Source: a virus (lineage: Duplodnaviria; Caudoviricetes). From it: a stretch of DNA of 64,000 nucleotides. The position numbers and the translations under genes were made by a program. The stretch spans positions 146 through 64,145 of IMG/VR virus record IMGVR_UViG_3300048561_000027; one strand, written 5' to 3'. Position 1 is the stretch's first letter. The number at the start of each line of letters is the position of its first letter. This document shows, piece by piece, positions 3,201 through 41,487 of the stretch. The notes beneath the pieces are model-generated. The model was given only the letters and a program-made list of their open reading frames with translations. It ran no database searches and was not told where the DNA came from.

Positions 3201-4634
3201 ATGTTTGAATCCATAAAGAATATCTTTAAAGCCAAGACTCCACAAGGACTTCCTACCCCATTAAGCGATGGGGTATCTTTTTTAAGTGGGAGCAAACCCC
3301 CGGTTATGGGCACTACTGAACTTTTGCGAGTGTATTCAAAGTCCCCACGGCTTAGATCAATACTTAACAAGATTGCCGTGGCTGTGGCCAAAACATCGTG
3401 GAGACTCTTCGTTGCAGTGGATTCTAAAGGCAAATACGTAGGGCTGTCAAAGCCTAAGAAGTTTTTAGATTTTCAGAGCCGTGAAAAATTACTTAACGAT
3501 CTCTTAATTAATGAGGCTTTAGTTGAAATTGACCAACACCCTCTTCTGGATGTTTTAAGTGACGGCAACTCTGACCTGTTGGGGTACACCAACTTACAGG
3601 TTACACAGACCCATATTGATTTGTGTGGAGAGGGTTTTTGGCTAAAAGAACGCAATGTGTTGGGAGTGCCAGTTGAGTTGTGGCCTTTACCCCCTGATTG
3701 GATTAAGGATCTGCCCACCAAGAGTTCTCCTTATTTCAAAATAATGCCTTTGAATGTGCGAAGTAATTACGTTGAAATACCCGCTACTGAAATTATTTTC
3801 TTCAAAGATCCCGATCCCGCCGATCCTTACGGTAGAGGTTCGGGGTTATCCAAAAGTTTAGGTGACGAGATTGAAATTGACGAATACAGCGCGGGTTATC
3901 TGAAAAGCTTCTTTTATAACAGAGCCCGTCCGGATATTATTATATCCGGTGATGGTCTGCGAAAAGAAGACACGCTTAGATTGGAGCAAAAATGGTTGGA
4001 GAAGCAACAGGGCTTTTGGAACCGCTTCAAACCGATGTTTTTGTCGCAAAAAGTCGATGTAAAAACGATTAGTCAAGACCTACAATCTATGCAGATCACG
4101 GCCTTACGCAAAGACGAGCGGGATGCCTTTATTAGCATTGTTGGTGCGCCCCCGGAATTGTTTGGCGTATTGTCTGCATCAAATCGCAGCACTATTGGCG
4201 CGGCTGAATACCTTTGGGCGAAAGGAATCATACAACCTAGAATGGAAATGTTGCGAGTCCACTTACAAAAACGTCTCGTACCTGATTTTGATGATCGCTT
4301 AATTCTGCATTATCACACGCCGATTCCAAGTGATGAGGAAGCCGAATTTAAAGTTATGGAGAAGTTTCCTTATGCGTTCAGTTTAGACGAACTCCGGAAT
4401 AAAGCCTTGTTTAAAAATAAAGCAGACGGTCAAGGTAAACTTCATCCAGTTCCAGCTAATATTGAACTTATGGATTTAAACAATCCCGTACATGTTAAGG
4501 GTGCTACTGGTCAGGACAACAGTGATCTAGATGAAAAAGACCTAGACAATATCAGAGAAAAACTTTACACTGAACTAAGTGAAAAATTACTACCTGTATT
4601 AATTAAAAAATTGCACAGACCGAGGATAGCTTGA
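3201..4634 (+). CDS. Portal protein (HK97 family)
   Basis: DLCGEGFW, ELWPLPP, IIFFKDPDP..YGRG.S, FFYNRARP, IVGAPPELFG motifs; follows terL. Confidence 0.93.
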   Translation: MFESIKNIFKAKTPQGLPTPLSDGVSFLSGSKPPVMGTTELLRVYSKSPRLRSILNKIAVAVAKTSWRLFVAVDSKGKYVGLSKPKKFLDFQSREKLLNDLLINEALVEIDQHPLLDVLSDGNSDLLGYTNLQVTQTHIDLCGEGFWLKERNVLGVPVELWPLPPDWIKDLPTKSSPYFKIMPLNVRSNYVEIPATEIIFFKDPDPADPYGRGSGLSKSLGDEIEIDEYSAGYLKSFFYNRARPDIIISGDGLRKEDTLRLEQKWLEKQQGFWNRFKPMFLSQKVDVKTISQDLQSMQITALRKDERDAFISIVGAPPELFGVLSASNRSTIGAAEYLWAKGIIQPRMEMLRVHLQKRLVPDFDDRLILHYHTPIPSDEEAEFKVMEKFPYAFSLDELRNKALFKNKADGQGKLHPVPANIELMDLNNPVHVKGATGQDNSDLDEKDLDNIREKLYTELSEKLLPVLIKKLHRPRIA

Positions 4635-6003: not shown

Positions 6004-6756
6004 TTATATTAAAAATCTCGGTACAAAATCACCCTGACTACAGCCCACTACTGGAATCATGTTATCACCTACTTGATCAATCTTGCCCTCATATAGATTA
6101 ATAATGGTTTTATACCAAATTTTAACCCAAAGTTTAGAATTACCTGACTTAATTTTCGCAGGATCAATTAAAATGTGATAACCCCCTTTGGTTTCCAACA
6201 CCTTACAGGCATCCTTAAAAATGTCGGAGATGACAAATCCAGAATTTATATCATCGATCCAATCTCTAATGTGTTGCAGTAATTTAGGCAATTTGTCGTC
6301 AAATACTGCCTTATCGTCAATATCAAAGTCTACCCAACACGTCCTTGATTTGGCCTTCTGAATTTGGCTCATCACTTCTTGATGTACGTTCCAACCTTGA
6401 TAGGGGTTACTAATTAAATCAGCAAGTTTTTTTAAAGAACCACGAGCAGCTAAAGTTTGACTTCTTGGATTCACTGTAATGTATAGCGCCAGAGATTCCT
6501 GCGGAGCCACGACATCTTTTAATTTATAACTTCCAACTGGACATTCAAGCTGTCTGATTTTATCCAATAATCTGGACTTATCAGACGTGAATCGTTTGAG
6601 TTGAGTTTTATCGGTTTTACTATGTTTCAATTCGGGGGAATATTTTTTTCTCGCGAATAATGCCAAATAGTAAATTTCATCGGGTTCAAGTTCGGGAAGC
6701 CAGTCGATGAAATCACGCAGGGCTTGTTCATTTTGGACAATTTTATAGGTGTTCAT
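6004..6756 (-). CDS. AEP (primase-polymerase) superfamily-like protein
   Basis: WVDFDID (motif A, DxD) and ETKGGYHIL (motif B, GxH). Confidence 0.55.
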   Translation of the reverse strand: MNTYKIVQNEQALRDFIDWLPELEPDEIYYLALFARKKYSPELKHSKTDKTQLKRFTSDKSRLLDKIRQLECPVGSYKLKDVVAPQESLALYITVNPRSQTLAARGSLKKLADLISNPYQGWNVHQEVMSQIQKAKSRTCWVDFDIDDKAVFDDKLPKLLQHIRDWIDDINSGFVISDIFKDACKVLETKGGYHILIDPAKIKSGNSKLWVKIWYKTIINLYEGKIDQVGDNMIPVVGCSQGDFVPRFLI

Positions 6757-6771
6757 TTACTTTCCTCAGTA

Positions 6772-6913
6772 AAAATCTTGGCCCGACAGGTTTGTATCCA
6801 AGCCAAAATCTTGGCCCGACAGGTTTGTATCCAAGCCAAAATCTTGGCCCGACAGGTTTGTAGCCAAGCCAAAATCTTGGCCCGACAGGTTTGTATCCAA
6901 GCCAAAATCTTGG
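6772..6913. repeat. 33-bp tandem repeat x4 plus a partial copy
   Basis: AAAATCTTGGCCCGACAGGTTTGTATCCAAGCC at 6772, 6805, 6838 (one substitution) and 6871, plus 10 bp at 6904. Confidence 0.98.
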
Positions 6914-7585: not shown

Positions 7586-7945
7586 TTAAGATATTCTCTA
7601 CTAATAGGCTGAATATTTACATTAAAAACTTTTTACTAGGTCAAGTCAATAAGAATCTAATCTTAACTTAATAAAGACATAACTCTTTGATTTTATAAGT
7701 TCAAAAAAATATTGTTGATTTTTACCTAGCCATAGCCTATAGTTCGAATTATCTTAACTGTATCAACTTAAAGGAGTTTACTTTGTTAAGTCTTTTTCGT
7801 AAAATGTCCAGTATTGGTTTCGGTATTGGCGGTCTGAATTGTTCTTGTTGTGCGCCTCAGCGATCCCCTTACCGCAAACAATTTAGACGGCAACACAATC
7901 GAAAAGCCCGCCATATTTTAAAACACGAATTGAGGAATTGCTGTT

Positions 7946-8257
7946 ATGACTACAAAACCCAGTATTAATTTTATCAATAACTCCTGGATTATCAAATATC
8001 AAGATCGGTTATATCCAGTTATCACGGACGGTCAGGGCCGATACTTTACTGATCTAAGCAAATGTGAACCCCCCATTGATCGCGATACAGTAGCCCCATT
8101 TCAGTATCTATCCTGTGATGCCGAACACAAGGCTATTAAAAAATTGATCGCGAATAAGAAAAAATCCCTAAAGGCGAAACTACGAGATAAAGCTATGCAA
8201 AGCCTTGGGCTGACGAAAGTTCGCGGTGCCGTATCGGGTCGAATTTATTGGGAATAA
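7946..8257 (+). CDS. Early-region hypothetical protein
   Basis: ORF with GAGG RBS; ends in TKVRGAVSGRIYWE. Confidence 0.65.
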   Translation: MTTKPSINFINNSWIIKYQDRLYPVITDGQGRYFTDLSKCEPPIDRDTVAPFQYLSCDAEHKAIKKLIANKKKSLKAKLRDKAMQSLGLTKVRGAVSGRIYWE

Positions 8258-8263
8258 TACGGC

Positions 8264-8292
8264 TTGACTTTATCAAGTTAAAAAGATAATCT
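8264..8292 (+). promoter_or_regulatory. Sigma70-like promoter overlapped by palindromic operator-like motif
   Basis: TTGACT-N17-TAATCT; ACTTTATCAAGT overlaps the -35 box. Confidence 0.5.
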
Positions 8293-8440
8293 TTTAATCA
8301 AGTTAGTCTTAATCGGAGTATGTTTAATATGAACACAGATATGAGGGAAGAAGTGCAAAAAATCGCACAAGCAACCTTTGATCATTACATTAATAAATCC
8401 GATTACAAATTAATCACGCCGAACTAAAGGTATTTATATC

Positions 8441-8901
8441 ATGAAAACTTTTTTATTTTTTGTTGATTATACGGATTGTGGAGATGGTTGGGCGTTAGTT
8501 GCTGAAGCGGACACCGTAGAAGAACTTTTACCTCTTTATAATAGTTCAGGTTATAATAATTCTAATAAATTAATTGTTACAGCAGTAGCATATACAATCA
8601 CGATCAAATCTATAATGGAGTATTCGCCTTTAGAATCCACAGGAAACAATTCAGGAGTATAAATAAAATGCCGCAACCCAATATTAGAGACACCTATAAT
8701 CAGGACATGATGGAAAAATTCCATATCTACCACAAATCCCGATCGAACTTGTACCCAATCGAATACGGCATTGTTCGTGCCAACGCGAACAGTACGCGCG
8801 ATCAAGTTTTGCGGATCTGGAATAACGGACACCCGGATATTTTTCATCTTAATCCAGCCGATCCTGGCGTTATCGTTACCAGTCTTGATTTGACGAATTA
8901 A
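8441..8901 (+). CDS. Two small early hypothetical proteins (8441-8662, 8668-8901)
   Basis: Consecutive same-strand ORFs. Confidence 0.55.
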
Positions 8902-8915
8902 CAGGAGACTAAATC

Positions 8916-9422
8916 ATGTCAACAATTAAACTTGAAATTTCCGCCGCTAATCAAAATAAAGTTATCTTAACTGGTGTTGATCTGGATTGTGACGACACCT
9001 TACAAGATGCCGTAGAACGGGAATTTTCATTTGAGGAGTTCACGGATGAACAACAAGCGGAAATTTTGGAAGCCCTTGAAGACGGCGATTATATTATTCT
9101 CGCAAGTGATGGTTTAGTCGGGTCATTTGTCAATGCGGGGATCTTAGATGACGCTTTTTTTGAATGTCGTGATCACGATCTAGATGAGGCTGTGAAACAG
9201 GCATGGTTAGATAACGGCATGGAATGGGATGCAGATCAAATCAACGAAGCCTATCAAGGCCGATTTAATTCAGACGCCGACTTTGCCCGTGATTTGTGCG
9301 ATCAAATAAGGGCCATCCCGGATGATTTTCCATCATGGATAAGTATTGACTGGTATCAAACGGCTAAAGATATTATGATGGATTACTTCGAAAGCAACGG
9401 GCATTATTTCCGAAACCTTTAA
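8916..9422 (+). CDS. ardA: ArdA-like antirestriction protein (acidic DNA mimic)
   Basis: Highly acidic; C-terminal AYQGRF.SDADFA...IP...IDW..TAKD.MMDYFESNGHYFR matches the ArdA pattern; AGGAG RBS. Confidence 0.75.
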   Translation: MSTIKLEISAANQNKVILTGVDLDCDDTLQDAVEREFSFEEFTDEQQAEILEALEDGDYIILASDGLVGSFVNAGILDDAFFECRDHDLDEAVKQAWLDNGMEWDADQINEAYQGRFNSDADFARDLCDQIRAIPDDFPSWISIDWYQTAKDIMMDYFESNGHYFRNL

Positions 9423-9497
9423 AGGAGTTTAAATTATGCGATCATTTACAGGTCACGTTGTCGGTAAAGAACGACAATACCAAATTAGGCGGACGCT

Positions 9498-9674
9498 ATG
9501 TGTCAATCCTGTGATGTATTAGTAATAAATGGCGTATTGTGTCATGAACTAGGTTGTCCCGATAAATGGCGGGACGAAATGCGCGAATGTAAATGGTGCG
9601 GACAAGATTTTAAACCAGAATCCAGAATTGATCAGTTTTGTTCCGACGATTGCCGTGAATTCTATAATACTTAA
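9498..9674 (+). CDS. Small Cys-rich (Zn-finger-like) protein, 58 aa
   Basis: Not in ORF track; MCQSCDVLVINGVLCHELGCPDKW...CKWCGQ...FCSDDC. Confidence 0.6.
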   Translation: MCQSCDVLVINGVLCHELGCPDKWRDEMRECKWCGQDFKPESRIDQFCSDDCREFYNT

Positions 9675-9691
9675 ATAAGGATCTGCTCAAA

Positions 9692-10244
9692 ATGACTAAC
9701 ATAGATGTAAGTGATCGATTCATAAGTGCTACCTACAATCCATTTCAACGTAAGATTTATATTACCCTGCAAGGCGACTCTAACGATTATGAATGGAGCT
9801 ATGATTGCACCCAAGTACCAAATAAAGATCACAAGATCGTGATCTGGCATTGTCGGAGTTCGAGTTCGCACTTGTTAGACGCGAATTTACTTAAAATGCA
9901 CGTAGTTAACCGCAAACATTGGAGGTAACGCCATGACTAGGGCACAGAAAAGACAGTTTCATAAAAATTTAATAACACCTGAATTTGAGACTTATCTGTT
10001 TCAACAAGCTAAGACGGCTAAAGTAACTCGGACTTTTTCCGCGGCTGTGGCTTTTCCGGTTTACGCCAAACAATACTATTTTTATAAGGCATTTTGGCGT
10101 TACGTGGCGTTTTGTCGTTTGTGTAAACAAGCATACGACAATAAACATTCTACCTTTAATTGTTTGGCTTCCCAGATCAAACAATTAAAAAATGACCTGA
10201 AAGGTTGTGCGGATGAATTGTATTTAGCAACAAGGGGCGTATAA
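9692..10244 (+). CDS. Two early hypothetical proteins (9692-9928, 9933-10244)
   Basis: Consecutive ORFs with AAGGA / GGAGG RBS. Confidence 0.55.
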
Positions 10245-10373
10245 ATATGGGGAAGAAAAAAATCATTGTTGATATCCCCTATACCGGCGGAACGAATCTA
10301 TTTATTTTAGAGTTGAAAGTCATGCTAGTATTGGCCGGGTGTTTGGGTCTGTTATGTCTGACTATGTGAAGTA

Positions 10374-10402
10374 TTGACTTAATCAAATTAAGATTTTATA
10401 TT
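10374..10402 (+). promoter_or_regulatory. Sigma70-like promoter with overlapping palindrome variant
   Basis: TTGACT-N17-TATATT; ACTTAATCAAAT at 10377-10388. Confidence 0.65.
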
Positions 10403-10429
10403 TAATTTAACAATTAGGAGATCACAGCA

Positions 10430-10693
10430 ATGAAAGTCGAATCTATGCGGTCCACACGTGGCAATGCCATACCCAATCAATTTATCATCCATGCCGATGA
10501 CGGCGTGACATATTTTCAGAGTTACAACACCGTTATTGCCAGGATTGAAAATAACAAAACTGCCCTAGACGTGAACAAATGGAATTGCAGCAAAACCACA
10601 GCAACCCATCGCAATCAATTTCTCGGCATGACAACTGCGGAAATTAAAGCTGGTATAAATGCCGGTACAATTGAATTAGTCGATCTTAATTAG
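10430..10693 (+). CDS. Early phage hypothetical protein
   Basis: FQSYNTVIA...SKTTATHRNQFLG; AGGAG RBS. Confidence 0.7.
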   Translation: MKVESMRSTRGNAIPNQFIIHADDGVTYFQSYNTVIARIENNKTALDVNKWNCSKTTATHRNQFLGMTTAEIKAGINAGTIELVDLN

Positions 10694-10895
10694 TAATTAT
10701 GAAAATCAACCCCGGCTGTGGTTATTGGGATATCACACAATATCCCATTGGTGGCTGTTTTCGACGAGTGCCTAAAAACAGCGAAGGTTTAATTATTACC
10801 GATATCGTACCCCTAGATCGTCCATATCGGGGCTGTACACACCAAGGGCTAACTGAAGATAGCAAAGTCGCGTTTAATTTGGAGCATACATCGCC

Positions 10896-11732
10896 ATGAT
10901 TACTAAGAAAGAACTTTCACAATTGATTAGGGAAATTCAATTACAAATTGAACCCGATTTTAGAGCTTATGAGGATGACTACATACCGGGCATCTTGCTT
11001 ACCATCGCGTGTTCAGAAGACGGCGAGGACTGGACCTATCAGACCGGCGATACTCAATTCATTGGATCGGCCTACATGTACCCTATTTGGGTAAGTCATG
11101 GCGTCTACAATGATAAGAATATGGATATTACGGTAAGAGAATTGGCAGATATTTTTTATGACGACTTGAAAGCTGAAATTGCCGAACGTCGGGATTATTC
11201 TGATTGGCAAGAATTGACGGAGTAAATCGCTATGAACGTTAAAACCGCCGTGATAACTCATCATCTTTGTAACTTCGCTTGTTGGGAAGCCCGCGAAGAT
11301 GTTTGTCGCTGCGAATGTGGGGGGAAAAACCACGGCATTTTGAAACGCGATCCAGGTATGGTTCTCCCAAAGCGCCGATCTAAAATTAACGATCACATTT
11401 ATAATTTATTGGCGGTAATGACAGATCAAGCCTATTATCTGGCCGAACAAATAAATCGACAAGACGGACCTTGGAAAATTGACGAGTTAACGGACTGGCA
11501 GGGTAAACCTATCACATACCGCCATTGGTGGCGGGATAACGATCCAGGCGCACCTTGTAGGGTAAAACGTGCCAGTAAAGATCAGCAAGCTAGATGGCCA
11601 GAATTGGAGCCCTATCGAAACCTGCCGCGTTATAAGGGCTTGTACTTGGTTTGGTTGCGTCAAGATGTCGTTTTAAACGAAATCAATCAAGAACTTGTAG
11701 AAAAAGTCGGACGTGGAGAAAAATTGTCTTGA
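10896..11732 (+). CDS. Two early hypothetical proteins (10896-11225 acidic; 11232-11732 with CxxA...CxCxCGGKNHG)
   Basis: Consecutive ORFs. Confidence 0.6.
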
Positions 11733-11793
11733 TCCGGTTATTAAAAACAGCTAGTATTTAACTTAATAAAGTTAAATATAGGATTTTTCATAC

Positions 11794-12279
11794 ATGACTT
11801 ACGATGAATTAAAATCAACAGTACAAAACCGCGAACCCCGCGATTGTGTGATAGTCGCACTCAGTTTATTGACTAATTTTCCCTATGCCGATATTCAAGC
11901 CGCCATTGACTTGATTCAGCCTAATCGAACTCCGGGGAAAGGAATTTATTTAAGGCGAGCCTTCGAAGCTCTCGATACGTGTTACAATATCCACGCTTGC
12001 AGTGTTTACGAGTACGGCATTAGTTCTAACAATCTTCTCGGACTGCCTAAAATTCCCACCACAAGACGAAGTAAGATCGGCTATTACAGAATCGCCAGCG
12101 TTAAACAGTACACGAATCGGTCAATCCTGCCTTATGTCCGGACGGGTAAATATTTAATCAGTTATCACGGCCACGTTGCGGCCTGCATAAATGGTAAGAT
12201 CGAAGATTGGTCAAATAATCGCTGCTTGAGAATTCAGGAAATTTTCGTCCTGCGTGACCAATGGAATGACAGGATATGA
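11794..12279 (+). CDS. Hypothetical protein, possible Cys-His (papain/C39-like) fold
   Basis: DCVIVAL ... GHVAACING. Confidence 0.45.
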   Translation: MTYDELKSTVQNREPRDCVIVALSLLTNFPYADIQAAIDLIQPNRTPGKGIYLRRAFEALDTCYNIHACSVYEYGISSNNLLGLPKIPTTRRSKIGYYRIASVKQYTNRSILPYVRTGKYLISYHGHVAACINGKIEDWSNNRCLRIQEIFVLRDQWNDRI

Positions 12280-12966
12280 AAACGATAAACGATATCGTTT
12301 TAACCGTGATTAACGACGGCGACGGCAAGCAATGTGGTCTGTCTTATCAGGACAGGTTAGCGGTAATGAAGCAAAAACGACGTAAGGCACCCGATACCGA
12401 GACAGCCTTAGTTTGGTATAAAGAACACATCAATAACGCCCTGCGAACTTTTGAAGGGGCTTGTAGAAAGTATTCCCCACAGGCTGATAGTGGCGACATT
12501 AAAATCGCCGCGAAACGGATATATTTTTACTATTGCCGACAAGAACTATAAAACGTATACTGCCTTAAACCAATTAAACGGAGCGATAACTATGAATGAC
12601 ATAACGAAATTGCCCAAATGGGCGCAAGAACATATCAAGACCTTGACGGCTGAACGCGATATTGCCGTTCGGACGTTACGACAGTTTTCCGATCAGCAAG
12701 CACTCTCCCCTATATCATATAGGGAGCATTATTTTTATAACGGCGAAAACGGAGAACGGAGTCCGAAAGTTGTTACTCGTTATGTCGCTACGGATTCACT
12801 GACTGTTAATTATGGCGGCGTCACTTTGGACATTATTTTAAGACCCGCCAATAGTGGGCATGTCACAAATTTAATCGATCTGCAATATAGGGATAACGAC
12901 GGCATGATGGTACCTGTTATGCTGCAACCCGTGGCGTTTCAAAAAATGTATTTATTCAAGCAATAA
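12276..12966 (+). CDS. Two early hypothetical proteins (12276-12551; 12592-12966)
   Basis: ORFs; second probably starts MNDITKLPKWAQ after a GGAG RBS. Confidence 0.55.
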
Positions 12967-13168
12967 ATGAAGTTGTCAAATTGCCGTAATTGATCTATAC
13001 TTTTACTTGCTTGAGTTGTACAATAGAAGATATTAAAACCAAACCTTAAGAGGTGATTATTATGAAGCGTTAATCATTTGAAATTATATATTTGAATTAA
13101 ATACTTTGAAGGATTGTGATAGTTGAGTAAGTTAAAATAAGGAATAGGCGGTTCTGTAGGGAAGTGCG

Positions 13169-13201: not shown

Positions 13202-13384
13202 ATTTTACCCCTTAGCTTAATCAAGTTCGTTTAAATTAATTTTGATAAAATTGCAATTTTAGGACTTTATTAAGTAAAGTGCATTAGTGTAGTAATGCAC
13301 TGATACAGTTAAGTCGTTGTTTTTATGTGAATTGGTGCTAAACATGGATGCGGTCATACTTTGGAGTCCGGTATTGTTTTAATA

Positions 13385-13431
13385 CAACATTTAATCAAGA
13401 CAACATTTAATCAAGACAACATTTAATCAAG
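13385..13431. repeat. 16-bp tandem repeat x3
   Basis: CAACATTTAATCAAGA x3 (last copy 15 bp). Confidence 0.95.
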
Positions 13432-13722
13432 TTTGATTTTATGAACTCGGGCTATGAGATCAATCTTGTGTTTCCCGTCCCGGAGAGTCATAGTTGATTA
13501 AGTGAATGTCAAAAGGTCAAGACTTGATGAGTTCCTAGCAGATCCTGGCAACTTGATCAAGTTTGGCGATCACTTCATATCCAATTATCGACTCTCCCCT
13601 CATTGGAGTATAGATGATTGGAGCTAAAATTAATTATAAAGCCCTACACACCACGATTTGATCAGACCCCTCACTACCACACTACTTTATTTCAAAAATT
13701 GCCACAATCAATCCACGTTTCG

Positions 13723-13821
13723 AAAATCTTGGCCCGTTGCCCCTCTATCGACCTCTGAAAATCTTGGCCTGCTAGGTTTGTATTGGCCCCAAAATCTTGG
13801 CCCGATAGGTTTGTATTGACC
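13723..13821. repeat. Three degenerate copies of the 6.8-kb 33-bp repeat
   Basis: AAAATCTTGGCC at 13723, 13758 and 13791; third copy AAAATCTTGGCCCGATAGGTTTGTAT. Confidence 0.9.
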
Positions 13822-13889
13822 TCAAGCCTTTTTTCCAGGTCAAAATCTGTAGAAAATCAGATTGTTGCCCATCAAACAATTTTTCAAAG

Positions 13890-13990
13890 TTATCCACAGC
13901 TTTATCCACAAGTGGTATTTTCGCAACAGCAGTTGTTTATAAGTCACGACGTTGTAATTTCACAACTTAACTTTACACAGCTTATCCACA
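13890..13990 (+). promoter_or_regulatory. DnaA-box cluster (left)
   Basis: Perfect TTATCCACA at 13890, 13902 and 13982. Confidence 0.8.
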
Positions 13991-14052
13991 AGCTATGCAC
14001 TGCAGTTGTTTTTTGTTCTTGTGTTGTCTTAATTAAGCCAATACACGATGCT

Positions 14053-14186
14053 TTAATACAACACTTGCTCAAGCCTGGAGTGAAAGCAGCAAGCTGTATC
14101 AAGTGGTATTAATACAACACTTGATCAAGCCTGGAGTAAAGGCAGCAAGCTGTATCAAGTGGTATTAATACAACACTTGATCAAGC
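14053..14186. repeat. 56-bp tandem repeat x2.4
   Basis: TTAATACAACACTTG(C/A)TCAAGCCTGGAGT...GCAGCAAGCTGTATCAAGTGGTA at 14053, 14109 and 14165. Confidence 0.95.
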
Positions 14187-14227
14187 TGATGGATTGTCTT
14201 TGTCAAGTCTGGAATTGACGACAATTA

Positions 14228-14477
14228 TCTTGATCAAGTTATTGGCATGACCTTTGCTTATTAACTATATTAAGCTAGACAACTAACTTAATCAATTAAG
14301 GCATGGTATTTGCTTGATTAAGTTAATGTCACTTAATTAAGACAATTCAGATTTAATTAATTAAGTCAAGGGCTTTACAATTATATTAATCAAGTGATTA
14401 GAATTTAATCACTTGATACAGTTATTGGCATAAAATGTGCTTATTAACTTAATCAAGTAATTGGCATAGTCCTTGCT
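14228..14477 (+). promoter_or_regulatory. Four tandem sigma54-type -24/-12 elements, each preceded by a palindrome
   Basis: TGGCA-N6-TTGC at 14243 and 14462, AGGCA-N6-TTGC at 14299, TGGCA-N6-GTGC at 14426. Confidence 0.6.
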
Positions 14478-14565
14478 ACGTGCGCACGTGCGCGATATTT
14501 ATTTGCATCTTAGCTTGATACAGTTTAGAATTTAATCACTTGATCAACTAATGGGAGTATCGGAC

Positions 14566-14844
14566 ATGAACATCAGAATGCTTAAATCGACAAATCGCGC
14601 AGAATTAGCGCGAGTTCCTTTCCGCGACAAAATCGCGCTGTGTTTGGTCCCGATCATGGTATTGACGGGCTTTCGATTTTCCAAAGCGTTTCGGCAAGCG
14701 GAGAATGGCTGGAAAAAATTGATCTACACCCTGATCAATGTCGTATTGGCGAATGTGCGATCCGACATGATCGCATATAGGATTGCAGTAAAAAATTACA
14801 ATGATGCCAGCGAATTTTTGCTGGCGCTTAAATCCAAACAATAG
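14566..14844 (+). CDS. Hypothetical basic protein, first gene of the GATC-rich operon
   Basis: GGAG RBS; ATG at 14566. Confidence 0.6.
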   Translation: MNIRMLKSTNRAELARVPFRDKIALCLVPIMVLTGFRFSKAFRQAENGWKKLIYTLINVVLANVRSDMIAYRIAVKNYNDASEFLLALKSKQ

Positions 14845-14854
14845 GAGATCAACC

Positions 14855-16621
14855 ATGTACCAGACACAAAAAGCAAACGGCTTGCACAAACTCCAGAAGG
14901 CCGATTTACGGACCGGGAACTTTTGCATTTTAAAAAATGCCGATTTGCAAAGGATCATTCAGTTTTATAGTAGTTATGGCTTTATTGATTCTTTTTACAC
15001 GTCAATCCATTTTCCCAAATTTTTCCGTCCCTGTCCCCTGCGCCCCCGGCATGGATTTGTCAACTCACGAGTCTGCAATAATCGCGAGGAATTGATCGAA
15101 TTGATCCAAGAAACTCTTGCGCATGACGAAGAGGCTGAAATGATCGTTATGCCGTTGATTGATGCTGATCTGAGTGCAGTCATAACTAAATCTGGTATGA
15201 CTGTCGGATCTGGATCGGATGGCGCTACATCTGGATCAAATCAGACGTTGCAATGGTCACTGCATAGTGACCTGAATTGGTTAAGCGAGCATGTAGGCAT
15301 CACTAACGATCTGTTTTTGGAAACCCTCTTGTCTGATCGAATCTTGTATTATGTACAGGCTCGCGATGGTGTATTACCTGATGCCTTACGATCTGATGCT
15401 TGGATACCCGCTGATCTGACCGTGACCTGTCTGATCGATGTTGCGACATATGATGATGCAGGGCCAGCTTATGAGAGCGCGATCCAGAATGCGCCCCCTG
15501 GATCGGTTTTAATCCATCGCGGCGGAACAATGCTGTCACATTGGGCACAACATGCAATAGTCAAAAAAATCCCGATCATATTCGATGATCGGGATATAAA
15601 GATCGGTGATCAATTAGTCGCGAATGTCGCCTTAACTGATTATGTCGATCATCGCGATGCCCTGATGCAAGGTATTCAATACGGCATGACGTGTAATCTA
15701 TTTGATAACACATACGATGTTATGCAGATCGTTTTATTGACCTTGCACAATGCCATGACTCTGCGCCATACCGCACATGGGTCAACCATGATCGGATTCG
15801 CTGCGTCGGCTTTATTGCGGTATTCATATGCGGCGATCCTTGGCGAGATTAGACACCTTAAAAAAAGACATAAACAAGAGCGCCATGAAATTTTTTCCGA
15901 CACGTTGAGATCCTTTGATGATTTTCTCGATTGCCGAAAAAAGATTACCGATAGCCGGAACAAATTCTTTACTCGGAAATGGTCGTGCGGGTATGGCGGA
16001 CAATCTTGGGGCAATTGTAGTCAGGCGGCCAAACAACTCGAACATGCTTTACTGCAGGTGGTTAGAGAAAAAAGTTATAACCAGCAAGCCATCAATGACT
16101 TGATCTTAAAATCTCATACAGTGATCAATTGTGCGCATAACAATGGACCTTTTCTGGATAAATTCACATCATCGAATTTTTTCGATAGCGCCGCACACGG
16201 GTTATTCACATGGATGGTTGAGACAGGTTATAAACTGCATACGTTTTATCTATCGCAGTTTTTCGGCATTTCGCATCCCATCAATCTAGCTCCCTGGATA
16301 CACTGCAAGGTGCATTTAGCAGTCAATCCGGTACGGGGTAAACGTTTTAAATGGGGTACACTGATCTTGCAATTTAATCGGCGTGATTCTGTTTTTCATT
16401 TTCAATACGGTCAATTGCACCACTATAAATCCTGCACGATTGATCCAGCTAATTTTACCGATCAAGATCGGGAATTTTTGAATCAGGAATTGACATTATC
16501 GCTAGTAAATTCTCTCGCCAATACCGAACGACTCTATCGGAAACTGACTAAGACAACTTTTGAAATGCTATCAGCCGATTTGCAAAAGTATTTGATCCTC
16601 AATCTCGCAAATCTCGCATAA
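14855..16621 (+). CDS. PEP-utiliser/dikinase-like protein: ATP-grasp-like N-terminus, phosphohistidine swivel domain, unknown C-terminal domain
   Basis: GSGSDGATSG and YYVQARDG resemble the PPDK-type ATP-grasp; HRGGTMLSHWAQHAIVKKIP resembles GGxTSHAAIVAR; AGGAG RBS. Confidence 0.65.
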   Translation: MYQTQKANGLHKLQKADLRTGNFCILKNADLQRIIQFYSSYGFIDSFYTSIHFPKFFRPCPLRPRHGFVNSRVCNNREELIELIQETLAHDEEAEMIVMPLIDADLSAVITKSGMTVGSGSDGATSGSNQTLQWSLHSDLNWLSEHVGITNDLFLETLLSDRILYYVQARDGVLPDALRSDAWIPADLTVTCLIDVATYDDAGPAYESAIQNAPPGSVLIHRGGTMLSHWAQHAIVKKIPIIFDDRDIKIGDQLVANVALTDYVDHRDALMQGIQYGMTCNLFDNTYDVMQIVLLTLHNAMTLRHTAHGSTMIGFAASALLRYSYAAILGEIRHLKKRHKQERHEIFSDTLRSFDDFLDCRKKITDSRNKFFTRKWSCGYGGQSWGNCSQAAKQLEHALLQVVREKSYNQQAINDLILKSHTVINCAHNNGPFLDKFTSSNFFDSAAHGLFTWMVETGYKLHTFYLSQFFGISHPINLAPWIHCKVHLAVNPVRGKRFKWGTLILQFNRRDSVFHFQYGQLHHYKSCTIDPANFTDQDREFLNQELTLSLVNSLANTERLYRKLTKTTFEMLSADLQKYLILNLANLA

Positions 16622-16634
16622 AGGAGTGTATAAA

Positions 16635-17366
16635 ATGACTATCAAAAAAACTAAGGGTAATAAAAAATCGGCGAAGGCCGCGCCGATTGAAAAAGCGGCT
16701 CTTACCAGTCCTCCAGTAATTGTCAAAGGATCAAAAGATTTTGAATCCGCGTTTAAACAACGTGAATTTAAAATCTGCGTCCATTCGGGCAATGTTGCGG
16801 TTATGCAAATTCGCGGAATCACGATCTATGGCGCTAAACTGGATCAAATCAGTGATTCAGATTCACGACTACTGTTAAACTGCTCGGGCTCGGATCTGGC
16901 AAAAAATCTGATCACTGTCCCGGACAATTATTCCAATCTATTAACTCAAACGTATGCGCGCAGAGTGATCAATATGAACTGGCGAGATCAAGGCATTCCG
17001 GCAGTAAAGCCTGAATTCTGGATCGCCTTGATCGATGCGATGATCGCAAATAATGATCACGATCTAGTGATCTTCTGTATTGGCAGTCATGGCCGGACCG
17101 GAACAGCAATGGCGAGTTTGATTATTGCCAATCTAGGATTGTCCGCCAGCGATGCGGTAAATTTTGTCCGCAACAGGCATTGCGCGCAATGTATCGAGAG
17201 TGATGCACAGATCCGTTATCTGCAACGTCTCGCCAAGCATTTCAATTGTTCGAGCGATGCCGATAAAAATCTGACGGGGTCTTATTCCGCAAGATTCGAT
17301 AGCAAATATAACGATCTGGATCGTTATGCCGAGATATCCAAATATTACACACAAGGGGATCAATAA
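16635..17366 (+). CDS. CX5R protein-tyrosine/dual-specificity-type phosphatase
   Basis: VIFCIGSHGRTG P-loop, upstream WRDQGIP, downstream CIESDAQIRYL; AGGAG RBS. Confidence 0.85.
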   Translation: MTIKKTKGNKKSAKAAPIEKAALTSPPVIVKGSKDFESAFKQREFKICVHSGNVAVMQIRGITIYGAKLDQISDSDSRLLLNCSGSDLAKNLITVPDNYSNLLTQTYARRVINMNWRDQGIPAVKPEFWIALIDAMIANNDHDLVIFCIGSHGRTGTAMASLIIANLGLSASDAVNFVRNRHCAQCIESDAQIRYLQRLAKHFNCSSDADKNLTGSYSARFDSKYNDLDRYAEISKYYTQGDQ

Positions 17367-17489
17367 ATGTCATACAGACCCTGCAACTTCGATTTTTCCA
17401 GACGATTGGATCAAATGGATCATCAACGATCAGTTATGCGAGTGGTTCGCATGATCGGATTGATCACGATTGTGTTGCTACTGATCTGA
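17367..17489 (+). CDS. Small protein with hydrophobic C-terminus, 40 aa
   Basis: ATG adjoins the preceding stop codon; ends MIGLITIVLLLI. Confidence 0.45.
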   Translation: MSYRPCNFDFSRRLDQMDHQRSVMRVVRMIGLITIVLLLI

Positions 17490-17512
17490 TTTGAGTTAAT
17501 CAACTAAGGATC

Positions 17513-17539
17513 AAGGGCGGGGGTATCCCGCCCTTTTTA
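17513..17539 (+). terminator. Rho-independent terminator
   Basis: GGGCGGG-GGTAT-CCCGCCC-TTTTT. Confidence 0.9.
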
Positions 17540-17552
17540 TTTGGGTCTTCAA

Positions 17553-17816
17553 GCCCTACGCCCTACGCCCTACGTCCAGCCCTACGCCATACGTCCAGCC
17601 CTACGTCCAGCCCTACGTCCAGCCCTACGCCCTACGTCCAGCCCTACGCCCTACGTCCAGCCCTACGCCCTACGTCCAGCCCTACGCCCTACGTCCAGCC
17701 CTACGCCCTACGTCCAGCCCTACGTCCAGCCCTACGTCCAGCCCTACGCCCTACGTCCAGCCCTACGCCCTACGTCCAGCCCTACGCCCTACGTCCAGCC
17801 CTACGCCCTACGTCCA
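17553..17816. repeat. 264-bp array of 7-mer GCCCTAC (x12) and 12-mer GCCCTACGTCCA (x15)
   Basis: Parsed manually: 12x7 + 15x12 = 264; one 12-mer variant (GCCATAC...). Confidence 0.97.
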
Positions 17817-17902
17817 GCACTAGATTTAGTATGTAAAGCAAACCGACACTACACAAGGACAAAAAACCACAAGTAAGTTATAAACAACACGTGGGGATAT
17901 GC

Positions 17903-18087
17903 TGTGTATAACTATTCGTTTGAGTCCCAATAGTTGTTTTCAGCCCACAATGGTTAATTTTTGACCAGTTCGGTGTGGCTTTTATCCGACAGCGTTGTTT
18001 TTATCCCTAATCGCTGTGACTTATACCCAACTGCGGTGCATAACCTGTTGATATCGTGGGGATTTCCTGTGGATAAGCTGTGGGTAA
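17903..18087 (-). promoter_or_regulatory. DnaA-box cluster (right, opposite orientation)
   Basis: TGTGTATAA 17903, GGTGCATAA about 18035, TGTGGATAA 18068, TGTGGGTAA 18079. Confidence 0.7.
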
Positions 18088-18159: not shown

Positions 18160-18268
18160 ACTTAATCAAGTCACTACAGGCTACCCCGGATACTGCCCTG
18201 ACTTAATCAAGTCTTGACAATACCGGCCATAAAATATATATATTTTGCCTTTTCCAACTTGATCAAGT
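18160..18268. promoter_or_regulatory. Three ACTTRATCAAGT palindromic sites
   Basis: ACTTAATCAAGT at 18160 and 18201; perfect ACTTGATCAAGT at 18257. Confidence 0.75.
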
Positions 18269-20849: not shown

Positions 20850-21125
20850 TCATAGTCCCCTCCGGCTATCCGGCCATAGGGGACAAGTCGATAGCGGTAT
20901 CAACGTACCATACCCGGCTCTACGTCGCTCTAACGCCCTCCAGCGACTCCCGTTTTTCTCAGCGAACCAGCATGTTTCAGCGCACCCGAATTTCTGAGTC
21001 GCGTAGAATATGCAGACGCGCCCGTCAGGAAAATCGGTTGCGCACGTAGGATTTCCCTCGTGGTCGCGATAACGGACCAAGGGGACAAGATGTATTTCCA
21101 TACTTGCTAACTGGTCATTGCTCAT
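20850..21125 (-). CDS. Cys-rich hypothetical protein; paralogue of 41221-41487
   Basis: First 86 nt identical to the 41221 copy. Confidence 0.75.
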   Translation of the reverse strand: MSNDQLASMEIHLVPLVRYRDHEGNPTCATDFPDGRVCIFYATQKFGCAETCWFAEKNGSRWRALERRRAGYGTLIPLSTCPLWPDSRRGL

Positions 21126-21126
21126 C

Positions 21127-21264
21127 TCAGCCCTCCTTTAGATCTTCAATATTTGATATTAACTTTAATTCGGGTTTACTAGCTGACCTAGATTTATCTG
21201 GCTCAACTAAATTGTTCCAAATCAATTTTAAATCATGTTCGCTTTTATTAAGTAAAGTTTTCAT
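21127..21264 (-). pseudogene. Chimeric 45-aa remnant: N-terminus of 24745-24978 fused to the SspB C-terminal tail
   Basis: MKTLLNKSEH (cf. MKTLINKDEH) + DLKLIWNNLVEPD...KPELKLI (cf. NLKLIWNNPVEPD...KPELKLI). Confidence 0.75.
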
Positions 21265-21292
21265 TTTAGTAATCTATTGGGTTAATTCAATT

Positions 21293-21904
21293 TCACGCAC
21301 CAGGTCCATATGAATCCAAATCGTCCCAATCATTATTGGAAGTACGGGCGGGACTATCCAATAATAGCGCGTACTTGCCTGGACTCCACGACAACGGGGG
21401 ACTGGCTTCCATAGCAGCATTAAAGACGTTTATGGTGTTTACTAAATAATCCGGCGCGTCCTCGCCTTCAATTAAGACATCTTTAAAGTAATTAACGTCA
21501 ATACGGGCACGTTCGGGCTCACAAACACGCAAATTTAAGCTGCTCAATGTCTGGCCTTCTTCTAAATCATCCTCTGCCTCACCTGGACTGCTATAAAAAC
21601 GCTCCGTGGTCTCCGAATACAGCATAGCTACACCATCCCACTCTTTTTTAAGTCTGGAATCAAAACACTTTTGATCTAATAGTTCACAACAGTCATCACA
21701 AACCATATGAGATTTTACACAAGGCTTTCCACAGTTTTTACAACCCACATGAGTACAGCCGTCATATCTAGCCATGTCTTCTGCGGAACTGCCAGTACCA
21801 TAAAAATTGCCGTGTCTGGACACCCAACCACTAAGTCCGGTTTGGAATGTCGCGGCTTCCGGGTCATCTAGCATAACAATGGTATTTTTAATGTTCATAA
21901 TCAA
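21293..21904 (-). CDS. Hypothetical protein, paralogue of 22186-23070
   Basis: Shared TGLSGWVSRHG...ARYDGCTHVGCKNCGKPC...PPLSWSP. Confidence 0.8.
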   Translation of the reverse strand: MIMNIKNTIVMLDDPEAATFQTGLSGWVSRHGNFYGTGSSAEDMARYDGCTHVGCKNCGKPCVKSHMVCDDCCELLDQKCFDSRLKKEWDGVAMLYSETTERFYSSPGEAEDDLEEGQTLSSLNLRVCEPERARIDVNYFKDVLIEGEDAPDYLVNTINVFNAAMEASPPLSWSPGKYALLLDSPARTSNNDWDDLDSYGPGA

Positions 21905-21983
21905 TAATAGATTTTTTACCTTAATTAATCAAGTCATTAATAGCTGTGGCAATGCTTGTATAGGTAGGTTTAATGGTTATCAG

Positions 21984-22157
21984 ATTTGAATAATTTAGCT
22001 GGATCTAATGGATACAATAAATCAACACTGTCGGGTTCAAGTAATCCGGTTTGATCTGGGTGGGGATCGTAACACATTTTCCCGTAATTCCACAACGTAG
22101 CATGGTATAACCCACGATTAGACATACCGCACACAATGAAATAGCCCTCATAATTTT
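21984..22157. repeat. 174-bp exact direct duplication of 23801-23974
   Basis: Base-by-base identity; offset 1817 bp. Confidence 0.95.
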
Positions 22158-22185: not shown

Positions 22186-23070
22186 TTATTTAAGACTCTT
22201 TAAACAATCAGGTGGCCACTTCCCTTCCGCTTTCAGTCTAGCAATTTTCCGTATATTGTAATTCTCAGTCTTCTGCTCAATTTCGTCCACAGTGTCGTGG
22301 TTAAAATCGATATGACAAGTATTGCAACACCGTTCGCCGTCGTCGCCGTACAAAAAATGCTCTTCATTGCCATGACCAATGAATAATAGATGACGCAATT
22401 TCTTTTCTTTTACTTCGCTCATATTCTCAGTCGTTTTGGCGGTTTTCTCTTCGGTTTCAGGTTTTAATGCACTGGGTCCGTATGAATCAAGATCATCCCA
22501 ATCATTATTGGGCATACGTGGGGAACTGTCCAATAACAGCGCATATTTACACGGACTCCACGATAACGGTGGATTAGCCTTCATAGTGGCGTTAAAGGCG
22601 TTTATAGCATTTAGTAAATAATCCGGCGCGTCCTCATCTTCAATTAGGATATCCTCAAAATCATCAACGTCAATACGGGCGCGTTCGGGCTCACAAATAC
22701 GTAAATTTAAACTATGCAATGTCTGGTCTTCCGCTAAATCATCTTCGGCCTCCTCCGGACTGGAATAAAAGATCTCTTTAGATTCCGAATACAACATCGA
22801 CACTCCATCCCATTCTTTTTTGGGTCTGGCATCAAAACGCTTTTGATCAAGCCTTTTACTACAGACATCACAAGCTGTGTAAGACTTCTGGCAGGGCTTT
22901 CCACAGTTTTTACAACCCACATGAGTACAGCCGTCATATCTAGCCATGTCTTCTGCGGAACTGTCGTCCCCATAAAAACGTCCGTGTCGGGACACCCACC
23001 CACTTAAATCGGTCCGGAATGTCGCGGCTTCCGGGGCATCTCGCATAACAATGATATTTTTAGTATCCAT
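22186..23070 (-). CDS. Hypothetical protein (longer paralogue with extra C-terminal domain)
   Basis: 294-aa ORF. Confidence 0.8.
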   Translation of the reverse strand: MDTKNIIVMRDAPEAATFRTDLSGWVSRHGRFYGDDSSAEDMARYDGCTHVGCKNCGKPCQKSYTACDVCSKRLDQKRFDARPKKEWDGVSMLYSESKEIFYSSPEEAEDDLAEDQTLHSLNLRICEPERARIDVDDFEDILIEDEDAPDYLLNAINAFNATMKANPPLSWSPCKYALLLDSSPRMPNNDWDDLDSYGPSALKPETEEKTAKTTENMSEVKEKKLRHLLFIGHGNEEHFLYGDDGERCCNTCHIDFNHDTVDEIEQKTENYNIRKIARLKAEGKWPPDCLKSLK

Positions 23071-23092
23071 AGTTAATAATAAATTTTTTACC

Positions 23093-23787
23093 TCATTTAA
23101 TCAAGTCATTAATAGCTGCCGCAATGCTAATATAGGTGGGTTTGATGTCATGTCTGACCTCTATTCCATCTGGAGTTTTTATCAAAAACGTTCCGTTGCG
23201 TTCTTGATCACTTAAATCCTTCGTCCAATTACGACCTATTGTAAACAACATTTCGTGCATGGCTGCTGTGTTTTTATTATGTAATTCCCGATGTGAAAAA
23301 AAGATCGGCAATACATTTGCAAACTGTTGCGTTGCCAATCCTGGGCTCGCCACAGCAAGGCATTAACCACGTCTTCTTTAGGTACGTTAAAAACTCTACT
23401 ATCAAACACTTGTAAAGCTCCAACATTACCTAACATCGAATAAAACCGATTAAACTCTACTGACATCGTGGCCGCGCTTATAGAAATTAACTTATTTAAA
23501 TCATAGCCAAACCAGCCTTGCGTTTCTAACGTGTCATAATCGGTAAGGACAAAACTGGCTTCATCACTTTGCACATACGCACATTTAAATCCCTGCATAT
23601 CAAACGCGGTTATTTTAGCCGCCACTACCATAGCTTGCATCAAAGACTTATCAAAAGGTTTTCCACACATTCTAGTAAACGTATGAAAATCCCGCCCGTC
23701 TACTCTAATCATTACAGGCATTCTAGGCATGGCTTGTCTGGCCATTACAGCTTCGTATTGTTTAATCCGATTGCCTAAATTTGACAT
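23093..23787 (-). CDS. thg1: tRNA(His) guanylyltransferase Thg1-like, split by a -1 frameshift at a T7 run (23296-23302)
   Basis: IRVDGRDFHTFT, YVQSDEASF, FDSRVF, WRAQDWQRNS in one frame; FFSHRELHNKN...GRNW...NGTF continues in the -1 frame. Confidence 0.9.
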
Positions 23788-24203
23788 TAGGGTTTCTCCA
23801 ATTTGAATAATTTAGCTGGATCTAATGGATACAATAAATCAACACTGTCGGGTTCAAGTAATCCGGTTTGATCTGGGTGGGGATCGTAACACATTTTCCC
23901 GTAATTCCACAACGTAGCATGGTATAACCCACGATTAGACATACCGCACACAATGAAATAGCCCTCATAATTTTCTAACCATTCATAACCATTTGGTAAG
24001 GATAACGATATCGATATAATACCAAACCCTTTTTCTGCGAGCCATTTTCGAACAGATCCCCACCATTGGCTAGTAGTGTCATATCCATCCACACCATCAA
24101 AAAAATTTGGCACCTCGTCTAATGTCAACTCAAATAAGGACGCCAAACACGCACTGTAACAATTACCTCTCGGACCTTTTTCTGTTTGCATAACTGGTTT
24201 CAT
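23787..24203 (-). CDS. Hypothetical protein, possible C39/papain-like
   Basis: GNCYSACLASL ... HATL ... YDP. Confidence 0.5.
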   Translation of the reverse strand: MKPVMQTEKGPRGNCYSACLASLFELTLDEVPNFFDGVDGYDTTSQWWGSVRKWLAEKGFGIISISLSLPNGYEWLENYEGYFIVCGMSNRGLYHATLWNYGKMCYDPHPDQTGLLEPDSVDLLYPLDPAKLFKLEKP

Positions 24204-25437: not shown

Positions 25438-25514
25438 TGGTACGTCTGATCAGATTCGAACTGATACTTAACAGGGCTTAAACCTGTTGCCTCTACCAAT
25501 TGGGCCACAGACGC
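25438..25514 (-). tRNA. trnL: tRNA-Leu (anticodon UAA), short variable loop, encoded CCA
   Basis: GCGTCTG acceptor, ACAGG-TTTAAGC-CCTGT anticodon arm, ATCAG-TTCGAAT-CTGAT T arm, ACCA end; 77 nt. Confidence 0.9.
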
Positions 25515-36516: not shown

Positions 36517-36592
36517 TGGTGCCGGACCTTCGACTTGAACGAAGAACCCGGAGTTTACAAAACTCCCGCTCTGCCAATTGAGCTAATCCGGC
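36517..36592 (-). tRNA. trnT: tRNA-Thr (UGU)
   Basis: GCCGGAT acceptor, GGAGT-TTTGTAA-ACTCC anticodon arm, TTCAAGT T loop, ACCA end; 76 nt. Confidence 0.95.
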
Positions 36593-36650: not shown

Positions 36651-36728
36651 TGGTCTGAGAGGTAGGATTTGAACCTACGACCTCTTCCTTCCAAGGGAAG
36701 TAATCTACCCTGACTGATATACTCTCAG
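36651..36728 (-). tRNA. trnP: tRNA-Pro (UGG)
   Basis: CTGAGAG/CTCTCAG acceptor, CTTCC-CTTGGAA-GGAAG anticodon arm, GTAGG-TTCAAAT-CCTAC T arm, ACCA end. Confidence 0.95.
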
Positions 36729-41220: not shown

Positions 41221-41487
41221 ATGAGCAATGACCAGTTAGCAAGTATGGAAATACATCTTGTCCCCTTGGTCCGTTATCGCGACCACGAGGGAAATCCTAC
41301 GTGCGCCAAGGACTTCGCTACAGGTCACGTCTGTGTATTTTATGCCACTCAAAGATTTGGGTGTTCTGAAACGTGCTGGTTTGCTGAGAAGGATGGGCGT
41401 AGATGGGGGCCGCTGGAGCGGCGAAAAAACGGGCATGGCACGCTTATACCGCTATCGATCTGTCCCTTATGGGATGAAGCGTTCTGA
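41221..41487 (+). CDS. Cys-rich hypothetical protein; inverted paralogue of 20850-21125
   Basis: 86-nt identical 5' end; GGAGGAG RBS. Confidence 0.75.
   Translation: MSNDQLASMEIHLVPLVRYRDHEGNPTCAKDFATGHVCVFYATQRFGCSETCWFAEKDGRRWGPLERRKNGHGTLIPLSICPLWDEAF

Follow-up and report, generated by a model that had tools for sequence, protein, structure and literature searches.

A GATC-saturated operon in an uncultured bacteriophage: DNA-level selection and a tentative methylation-state reading

The operon and its products

The DNA analyzed here, hereafter the window, comprises 64,000 nucleotides (positions 146 to 64,145) of the IMG/VR viral contig IMGVR_UViG_3300048561_000027 and covers nearly all of this linear contig (64,145 bp; 39% guanine plus cytosine, GC). 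The source is an uncultured bacteriophage of approximately 98 kb. The completeness of the contig was estimated at ~66% using CheckV, and the same proteins are present on a contig of 98 kb. Our subject is a four-gene operon, orf97-orf588-orf246-orf40, in which the tetramer GATC is concentrated to the point of forming an island (Table 1). The window further contains genes for the small and large terminase, portal, prohead protease and major capsid proteins, many genes of nucleotide metabolism, and three transfer RNA (tRNA) genes.

The sequence of the orf588 product had no match in Pfam, NCBIfam or PDB. Its predicted fold (predicted local distance difference test score, pLDDT, of 82.5) matched the ATP-grasp domains of D-Ala-D-Ala ligases with an E value of about 7e-5; the model also matched rifampin phosphotransferase and phosphoenolpyruvate (PEP) synthase, with a poor global fit. 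The GGxxSH motif is conserved across the orf588 family, which is phage-borne and was found at 45 IMG/VR loci. Homologues in bacterial genomes numbered four, all distant, from Chloroflexi, Salinarimonas and Acidobacteria. The gene following orf588 homologues usually encodes a CX5R phosphatase, as it does in the window. The best PHROG match of orf246 was phrog_17568, which is labelled 'thymidylate synthase'. Because orf246 contains the CIGSHGR motif and matches, weakly, Pfam families of dual-specificity and tyrosine phosphatases (DSP/PTP), this label is apparently erroneous.

Table 1. Positions of the operon, its GATC island and related features in the window.
Feature	Position	Strand	Remarks
33-bp direct repeat (AAAATCTTGGCCCGNNAGGTTTGTAT...), first site	6772-6913		4.3 copies
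CTT(G/A)ATCAAG array	13216-14548		about 16 palindromes; upstream of operon
33-bp direct repeat, second site	13720-13825		about 2-3 copies
Perfect DnaA boxes TTATCCACA	13890, 13902, 13982 (13890-13990)	+	three; upstream of operon
Promoter-like hexamers	14242-14271 and 14502-14531 (in 14200-14548)	+	upstream; interleaved with CTT(G/A)ATCAAG
GATC island	14521-17520		62 sites, 20.7/kb; coextensive with one transcription unit
orf97	14551-14844	+	small hydrophobic protein without family match; GATC in 5/7 capable positions
orf588 (P0001)	14855-16621	+	dikinase-like: ATP-grasp domain, GGxxSH swivel-histidine motif, helical domain; GATC in 31/55 capable positions
orf246	16626-17366	+	CX5R dual-specificity/tyrosine-phosphatase-like, motif CIGSHGR; GATC in 17/30 capable positions
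orf40	17367-17489	+	small protein, hydrophobic C-terminus; GATC in 6/7 capable positions
Intrinsic terminator	17513-17535	+	strong; ends operon and island
C-rich tandem array	17560-17822		7-mer and 12-mer units (19-nt compound unit, 13 copies); between terminator and downstream DnaA boxes
Downstream DnaA boxes	17903-18087	-	one perfect (18068) and two with one mismatch; orientation opposite to upstream set
Further CTT(G/A)ATCAAG	18161-18267		three; beside promoter-like TTGACA-N17-TATATA
DNA methyltransferase P0026	35668-36270	-	phrog_799, E 4e-50, NPPF motif; 200 aa, C-terminal Cys cluster
Positions are numbered from the first nucleotide of the window. Capable positions are those that are codon-compatible with GATC.

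GATC density and borders of the island

A sequence-only reading of this DNA had estimated about 60 GATC sites in about 3.0 kb, with the enrichment running through all four open reading frames (ORFs) up to the terminator. Our recount gave 62 sites between 14521 and 17520, with every ORF enriched, and the counts used for comparison in that reading also held (14 in the 3.4 kb of nrdJ; 41 in the 5.2 kb from 7801 to 13000). The other 61 kb of the window contain 245 GATC, or 4.0/kb, as compared to about 3.6/kb expected. At this background rate, 12 sites would fall in 3 kb, and the Poisson probability of 62 is 2e-24. Dinucleotide shuffles of the island yielded 21.5 ± 4.2 sites, with a maximum of 40, and the runner-up 3-kb window outside the island contained 28. 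GATC was the most enriched tetramer of the island relative to the remaining genome, at 5.15-fold. The density was 17/kb in orf97, 17.6/kb in orf588 and 22.9/kb in orf246, and there were six sites in 126 nt in orf40.

The borders of the island are sharp. The first GATC lies 9 nt 5' of the first start codon and follows a gap of 310 nt; the last, at 17509, lies 4 nt short of the terminator stem (17513-17535) and precedes a gap of 584 nt. Between these limits, the site spacing and the counts per 100 bp are Poisson-like, and 48 of the 62 sites have a neighbour within 31 bp. No internal duplications were found in the island, nor did an Rfam scan return a match inside it. Beyond the four bases, there is no extended consensus: the flanks are heterogeneous, and TGATCA or TGATCG accounts for only 18/62 sites. 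The flanks are roughly reverse-complement symmetric, with T at -1 in 28/62 (45%) and A at +1 in 23/62. A milder rise in GATC, to about 12/kb, was observed at 7946-9928 (18 of 43 capable sites) and 11232-11732 (6 of 13). An ArdA-like anti-restriction gene (8916-9422) sits inside the former patch.

Selection for GATC beyond protein sequence and codon usage

We evaluated the density using a permutation null in which synonymous codons were shuffled within each gene, leaving the protein and the codon set unchanged. For the coding part of the island, 38 GATC were expected and 59 were observed (z 5.9). The corresponding values were 18.3 and 32 for orf588 (z 4.9; 0/2000 permutations reached the observed count) and 11.4 and 17 for orf246 (z 3.0). 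None of the 54 other genes exceeded z 2.2 under the same permutation. When codons were instead redrawn from genome codon usage, the expectation fell to 9.6 for orf588 (z 9.3) and 5.6 for orf246 (z 6.5). Among all 256 tetramers, GATC ranked first under the permutation null (z 5.9), followed by the overlapping CGAT (z 3.5).

The island is close to saturation. GATC occupies 59 of 99 codon-compatible positions in the island genes, as compared to 169 of 1045 (16%) elsewhere (Fisher P 5e-20). This fill of about 60% rises to 68% once positions forbidden by palindrome avoidance (see below) are set aside. A single substitution would create GATC at 30 of the 40 capable sites that remain unrealised, and purged 6-mers block 12 of the 40. 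The word occurs in all three reading frames, and the codons that can contribute to it are shifted: Ile is encoded by ATC in 63% of cases versus 17% elsewhere, and Asp by GAT in 85% versus 68%, with both codons also raised outside GATC words. The protein sequences are affected as well. Relative to residue-shuffled proteins, dipeptides capable of encoding GATC are in excess in orf588 (55 versus 40.6, z 3.2) and in orf246 (30 versus 20, z 3.3). Thus, the enrichment is written in synonymous codons, as the sequence-only reading had proposed, and the dipeptide order is bent too. Codon- and amino-acid-preserving shuffles, whose success in reproducing the density had been set beforehand as the refuting outcome, were run and did not reproduce it. 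GATC is selected at the DNA level across the whole transcription unit.

These data leave next to no probability for the absence of any signal, that is, for a density generated by amino-acid composition, codon usage or repeats. The Ile-ATC and Asp-GAT shift explains part of the excess, raising the expectation for orf588 from 9.6 to 18.3. The reading as a whole is refuted by the permutations and by GATC being the sole outlier of the 256 tetramers, and the lack of internal duplications also argues against it. A mutational or repair drive is quite improbable. Under such a drive, a GATC-directed repair bias might turn near-GATC words into GATC without any selected function; very-short-patch repair and the spread of HIP1 in cyanobacteria are analogues. 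It would fit the large share of unrealised sites one substitution from GATC, the enrichment of all frames with a uniform spread, and the ATC and GAT codons raised outside the word. It should be genome-wide, however, yet the remaining phage is at its composition expectation, about 4/kb, and the action of the drive would have to be confined precisely to a single transcription unit. It would also coexist with a fine avoidance of CGATCG, GGATCC and AGATCT, and the HIP1 octamer, GCGATCGC, is absent.

Palindrome avoidance and possible Dam-type methylation

The phage is depleted of 6-bp palindromes: for 33 of the 64, the count in the window is less than 0.3 of that expected from composition, and 16 of the 64 do not occur at all. 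Such a purge implies that the hosts possess many Type II restriction systems. Most palindromes that begin with T, such as TGATCA, TCGCGA, TCCGGA and TCATGA, escape it, being either tolerated or enriched. The purge extends to the island, which contains three purged palindromes versus 18 expected from synonymous permutation (P < 0.0005). Specifically, CGATCG, GGATCC and AGATCT together occur 0 times in the island versus 4.9 expected (P 0.001), despite the 59 coding GATC. The restriction pressure that shaped the remaining phage has thus acted on the island too.

This avoidance also bears on a signal at the RNA level, in which a factor would bind or cut GAUC in the operon mRNA. Such a factor would fit the coincidence of the island borders with those of the transcription unit and the frame-independence of the enrichment. 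It is nonetheless highly improbable. The word is palindromic with symmetric flanks, as is typical of recognition in double-stranded DNA; the avoidance of GATC-based 6-bp palindromes shows DNA-level selection on the same sites; and no RNA reader specific for GAUC is known to us.

The GATC-containing palindromes are not treated alike. TGATCA was retained (41 versus 21 expected), whereas its three NGATCN siblings were purged (1, 2 and 2 versus 9, 9 and 21). Similarly, 12 of the 15 ATCGAT sites are overlapped by GATC (e.g., those at 6253, 9714 and 12874); outside the island, the proportion is 10/13 versus 43% expected (P 0.015). The two TCTAGA sites that survive, at 4526 and 9179, read GATCTAGA and are likewise overlapped by GATC. 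Cleavage by BclI is blocked by Dam methylation and that by ClaI and XbaI by overlapping Dam methylation, whereas BamHI, BglII and PvuI are insensitive. Blocking by overlapping Dam methylation has been documented for NruI (PMC2890505). The match between tolerated and purged sites and the Dam sensitivities of these enzymes suggests that the phage DNA carries Dam-type G-m6A-TC methylation (m6A, N6-methyladenine) in its natural host.

A candidate writer of the methyl mark, judged from its sequence, is the phage methyltransferase P0026 (Table 1). Homologues of 41% identity occur in phi92-like coliphages, and an HslV-like peptidase gene is present in both phages. GATC is at 1.5-fold in these coliphages, a value that is uninformative on the specificity of the enzyme. 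The PDB held nothing similar to P0026.

If GATC is methylated, the density could be protective, with dense m6A shielding early or essential DNA from nucleases or other defences without a dedicated reader. In keeping with this possibility, the restriction pressure is extreme, as seen in the palindrome depletion; the surviving ClaI and XbaI sites are those overlapped by GATC; and the milder patch at 7946-9928 includes the ArdA-like gene. Against it, GATC methylation protects overlapping sites only, and the island contains few such overlaps. Nor does shielding explain the choice of these four genes, and the density of m6A is not known, in itself, to block any defence. We consider a protective role unlikely.

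Relatives of the operon and the possibility of import

The closest relative of orf588, P0002, is 64% identical and lies, on an 8.4-kb contig from run SRR22388331, in a locus with the identical four-gene order, in which a 46-aa gene occupies the position of orf40. No other close relative was found in scans of viral and metagenome contigs or in a search for shorter protein fragments. The window and P0002 were compared at the protein level, using GATC-capable dipeptides. P0002 contains 58 of these versus 38.4 expected after shuffling (z 4.6), and other family members ranged from z -1.1 to 2.2. Its density of capable dipeptides, 10.1 per 100 residues, is the highest in the family, for which the range is 3.6-7.9. 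Capability was retained in P0002 at 21 of 31 realised sites and 16 of 24 unrealised sites, with no difference between the two classes. These protein comparisons suggest that the cassette lineage maintained the density across 36% protein divergence while individual sites turned over. Based on the lack of helical phasing, of an extended motif and of positional conservation, it is the density, rather than individual positions, that is kept.

One further module was considered as a second operon-specific case and rejected. The module homologous to the operon is rich in GATC (p 7e-7) in locus L010, from a phage of 65% GC. Equal heterogeneity was seen among control genes of the homologous loci, with 2/28 at p < 0.001, and the sister locus L034 is without GATC (0.61 in L010 versus 0.00 in L034). 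The GATC sites of L010 are not common with those of the window, and it has no DnaA boxes.

Heterogeneity of this kind between genes is common in phage loci and is consistent with a mosaic origin of the island. The four genes could have been imported as a cassette from a GATC-rich, palindrome-stripped phage lineage, probably one sharing hosts, in which case the island would mark a recombination boundary. In the donor genomes, methylated GATC may have been a restriction-safe word or a shield. Import is the main rival of the methylation-state reading proposed below and is about equally probable. In its favour, island windows rank 1-2 of 62 in oligonucleotide-signature deviation with GATC masked; the GC content is 0.44-0.46 versus 0.39 and that of third codon positions (GC3) 0.45 versus 0.35; and the usage of GTC, GGC, TGC and CGC differs. 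One flanking protein is without a recorded homologue, while the cassette has a 64% relative. Phages that are GATC-rich throughout their genomes exist, such as the subcluster B3 mycobacteriophages, at four times expectation (PMC4841201).

Other data argue against import. The excess of capable dipeptides was kept over 36% protein divergence, whereas a passive relic should have decayed. Two-fold-degenerate codon families match those of the remaining phage, and orf588 is no codon-usage outlier once GATC is masked. The island has the exact palindrome purge of its recipient. No donor was found, as none of 50,697 phage records matched the window at the nucleotide level. Finally, TTA and CCA, codons that correspond to phage tRNAs, are used about half as often in the island, which could reflect early expression. 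This low usage hints at a higher-GC host and early expression of the island. The phage tRNAs, all on the minus strand, read TTA (Leu; 25438-25514), ACA (Thr; 36517-36592) and CCA (Pro; 36651-36728).

A proposed methylation-state patch

The window contains four perfect TTATCCACA boxes, all of which flank the operon. The link between dense GATC and DnaA boxes, cited from oriC in the sequence-only reading, thus holds here. The 33-bp repeats at the second site immediately precede the set of three DnaA boxes, and these iteron-like repeats and boxes constitute a candidate replication origin as judged from the sequence.

Based on the abovementioned data, we propose, with a probability of roughly 0.3, that the operon constitutes a patch of GATC sites whose methylation state is read through their density. 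GATC would be N6-adenine-methylated by a Dam-type enzyme of the host or by the phage NPPF methyltransferase, and the 3-kb patch could hold about 124 methyl groups. The reader would be a SeqA-type protein that binds clustered GATC and distinguishes, through density, between full, hemi- and absent methylation. Because the patch lies directly downstream of the iteron-like repeats and DnaA boxes, a fresh hemimethylated copy would be coated. The coated operon, and perhaps also the adjacent origin-like region, would then be shut off or sequestered until re-methylated. The patch would be epigenetic and embedded in coding DNA, long kept at the cost of protein sequence, and a host or phage factor would use it to time or protect the cassette; this wider proposal is equally tentative. 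Of the sequence-only reading, the signal in synonymous codons and the link to DnaA boxes stand. The functions that it assigned to the operon, those of a replication-coupled switch, of a sensor for the methylation state or of a sink for SeqA/MutH, are not supported.

The presence of 50-71% of the sampled words of the island in contigs from RNA sequencing runs counts in favour of the proposal, and several observations weigh against it. The sites show no helical phasing at 10, 10.5 or 11 bp (Rayleigh P 0.45 to 0.95), which a SeqA filament would favour. The island consists of four ORFs with a GC content of 0.41-0.50, above the 0.39 of the genome, and contains no AT-rich unwinding element like that of oriC. 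By comparison, the GATC clusters of the P1 origin oriR are AT-rich, whereas the island is GC-richer than its surroundings. GATC is not generally enriched in the distant homologues of the operon that occur in 40 other phages. The status of the island as a compositional outlier, and its codon usage, fit import as well as selection in place. The methylation inference rests on small counts, with P about 0.001 to 0.02 each, and is weakened by the general tolerance of T-first palindromes. With respect to the writer, the ~66%-complete contig has no match to PF02086, the family of classical Dam, and the match of PF05869 to P0026 (12 bits, E 0.004) is below the cut-off.

Comparison with known systems

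Known clustered Dam sites are short non-coding control elements: origins, packaging sites and phase-variable promoters. In E. coli, oriC and the dnaA promoter contain GATC clusters that are read by SeqA after replication, with about 45 sites/kb in oriC, and SeqA bridges pairs of sites up to 31 bp apart. The island resembles this system in that many Dam sites adjoin DnaA boxes and 48/62 sites fall within the bridging range. It differs in that oriC is ~250 bp of AT-rich non-coding DNA, whereas the island is 3 kb of coding DNA at 20/kb, without an unwinding element or phasing.

In phage P1, pac and oriR contain Dam-dependent clusters of GATC hexamers or heptamers, spanning 160-250 bp, with a defined number and order of sites. 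Like the island, these are phage cis-elements of clustered GATC, some of them intragenic, and oriR is bracketed by DnaA boxes. The P1 hexamers, TGATCA/G, also have a parallel in the T that precedes 45% of island GATC. Unlike pac, the island has its 62 sites spread evenly over four genes, and the terminase genes (TerS/TerL, 515-2616) are 12 kb away.

Within E. coli genes, clusters of a few GATC sites over tens of bases have reportedly been described by Henaut et al. 1996 and Riva et al. 2004, with a regulatory reading said to have been proposed. These likewise involve over-representation of GATC within particular coding sequences. The island, in contrast, saturates a whole operon, at 60% of possible positions, and bends the protein sequence. 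HIP1 of cyanobacteria is also a GATC-centred palindrome placed in coding DNA via codon choice, and the island has raised GCGA, CGAT, ATCG and TCGC. Nowhere in the window, however, does the HIP1 octamer occur, and CGATCG is avoided, with no occurrence in the island and one elsewhere. A HIP1-based or cyanobacterial origin was rejected on the absence of the octamer. The subcluster B3 mycobacteriophages (PMC4841201) share with the island an excess of GATC over composition in phage coding DNA, in the range of four- to five-fold. Their excess is genome-wide rather than confined to 3 kb, and GGATCC is enriched in them and purged here.

The island thus combines GATC near its ceiling over a whole operon, altering both codons and amino-acid order, with a genome that has purged half of the 6-bp palindromes. 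If read through methylation, it would represent a new route by which a phage tags a gene set with replication- or host-dependent information and needs no non-coding DNA to do so. If it is an imported cassette, phage lineages that exchange genes differ sharply in their word-level selection regimes. In addition, whether the DNA of an uncultured phage is Dam-methylated can be predicted from the spectrum of its restriction sites, and such a prediction narrows the candidate hosts.

Flanking elements

The 10-bp palindrome CTT(G/A)ATCAAG, allowing at most one mismatch, occurs 75 times in the window versus nine expected, often near promoter-like hexamers. A phage regulator probably uses it as an operator. 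Of the two variants, only that with G can be methylated. None of these palindromes lies inside the coding DNA of the island, and the possibility that island GATC forms part of the operator was rejected, as no overlap was found. Two other metagenome copies of the region of the C-rich tandem array are longer by 19 nt, probably corresponding to one additional array unit.

Occurrence of the phage

The structural proteins share no more than 30-40% identity with those of cultured phages, and those phages infect unrelated hosts. Assignment of a host from relatives of the terminase, capsid and portal proteins was dropped, as these relatives were at most 40% identical and spread over phyla. The island sequence is present in bioreactor metagenome runs of many studies and in contigs from RNA sequencing runs. 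Runs from groundwater, aquatic and sediment samples contained a few near-identical fragments of the island, too alike to test site conservation. The same sequence, including its junctions, is found on three independent metagenome contigs at 99.8-100% identity; the region is therefore not an assembly chimera.

The window also contains repeats away from the operon. Segments 21291-21975 and 22463-23147 are paralogous (685 nt, 81% identity), and an exact 174-nt repeat occurs at 21984-22157 and 23801-23974. An inverted copy of 253 nt, at 83% identity, links about 20893-21144 to 41221-41472.

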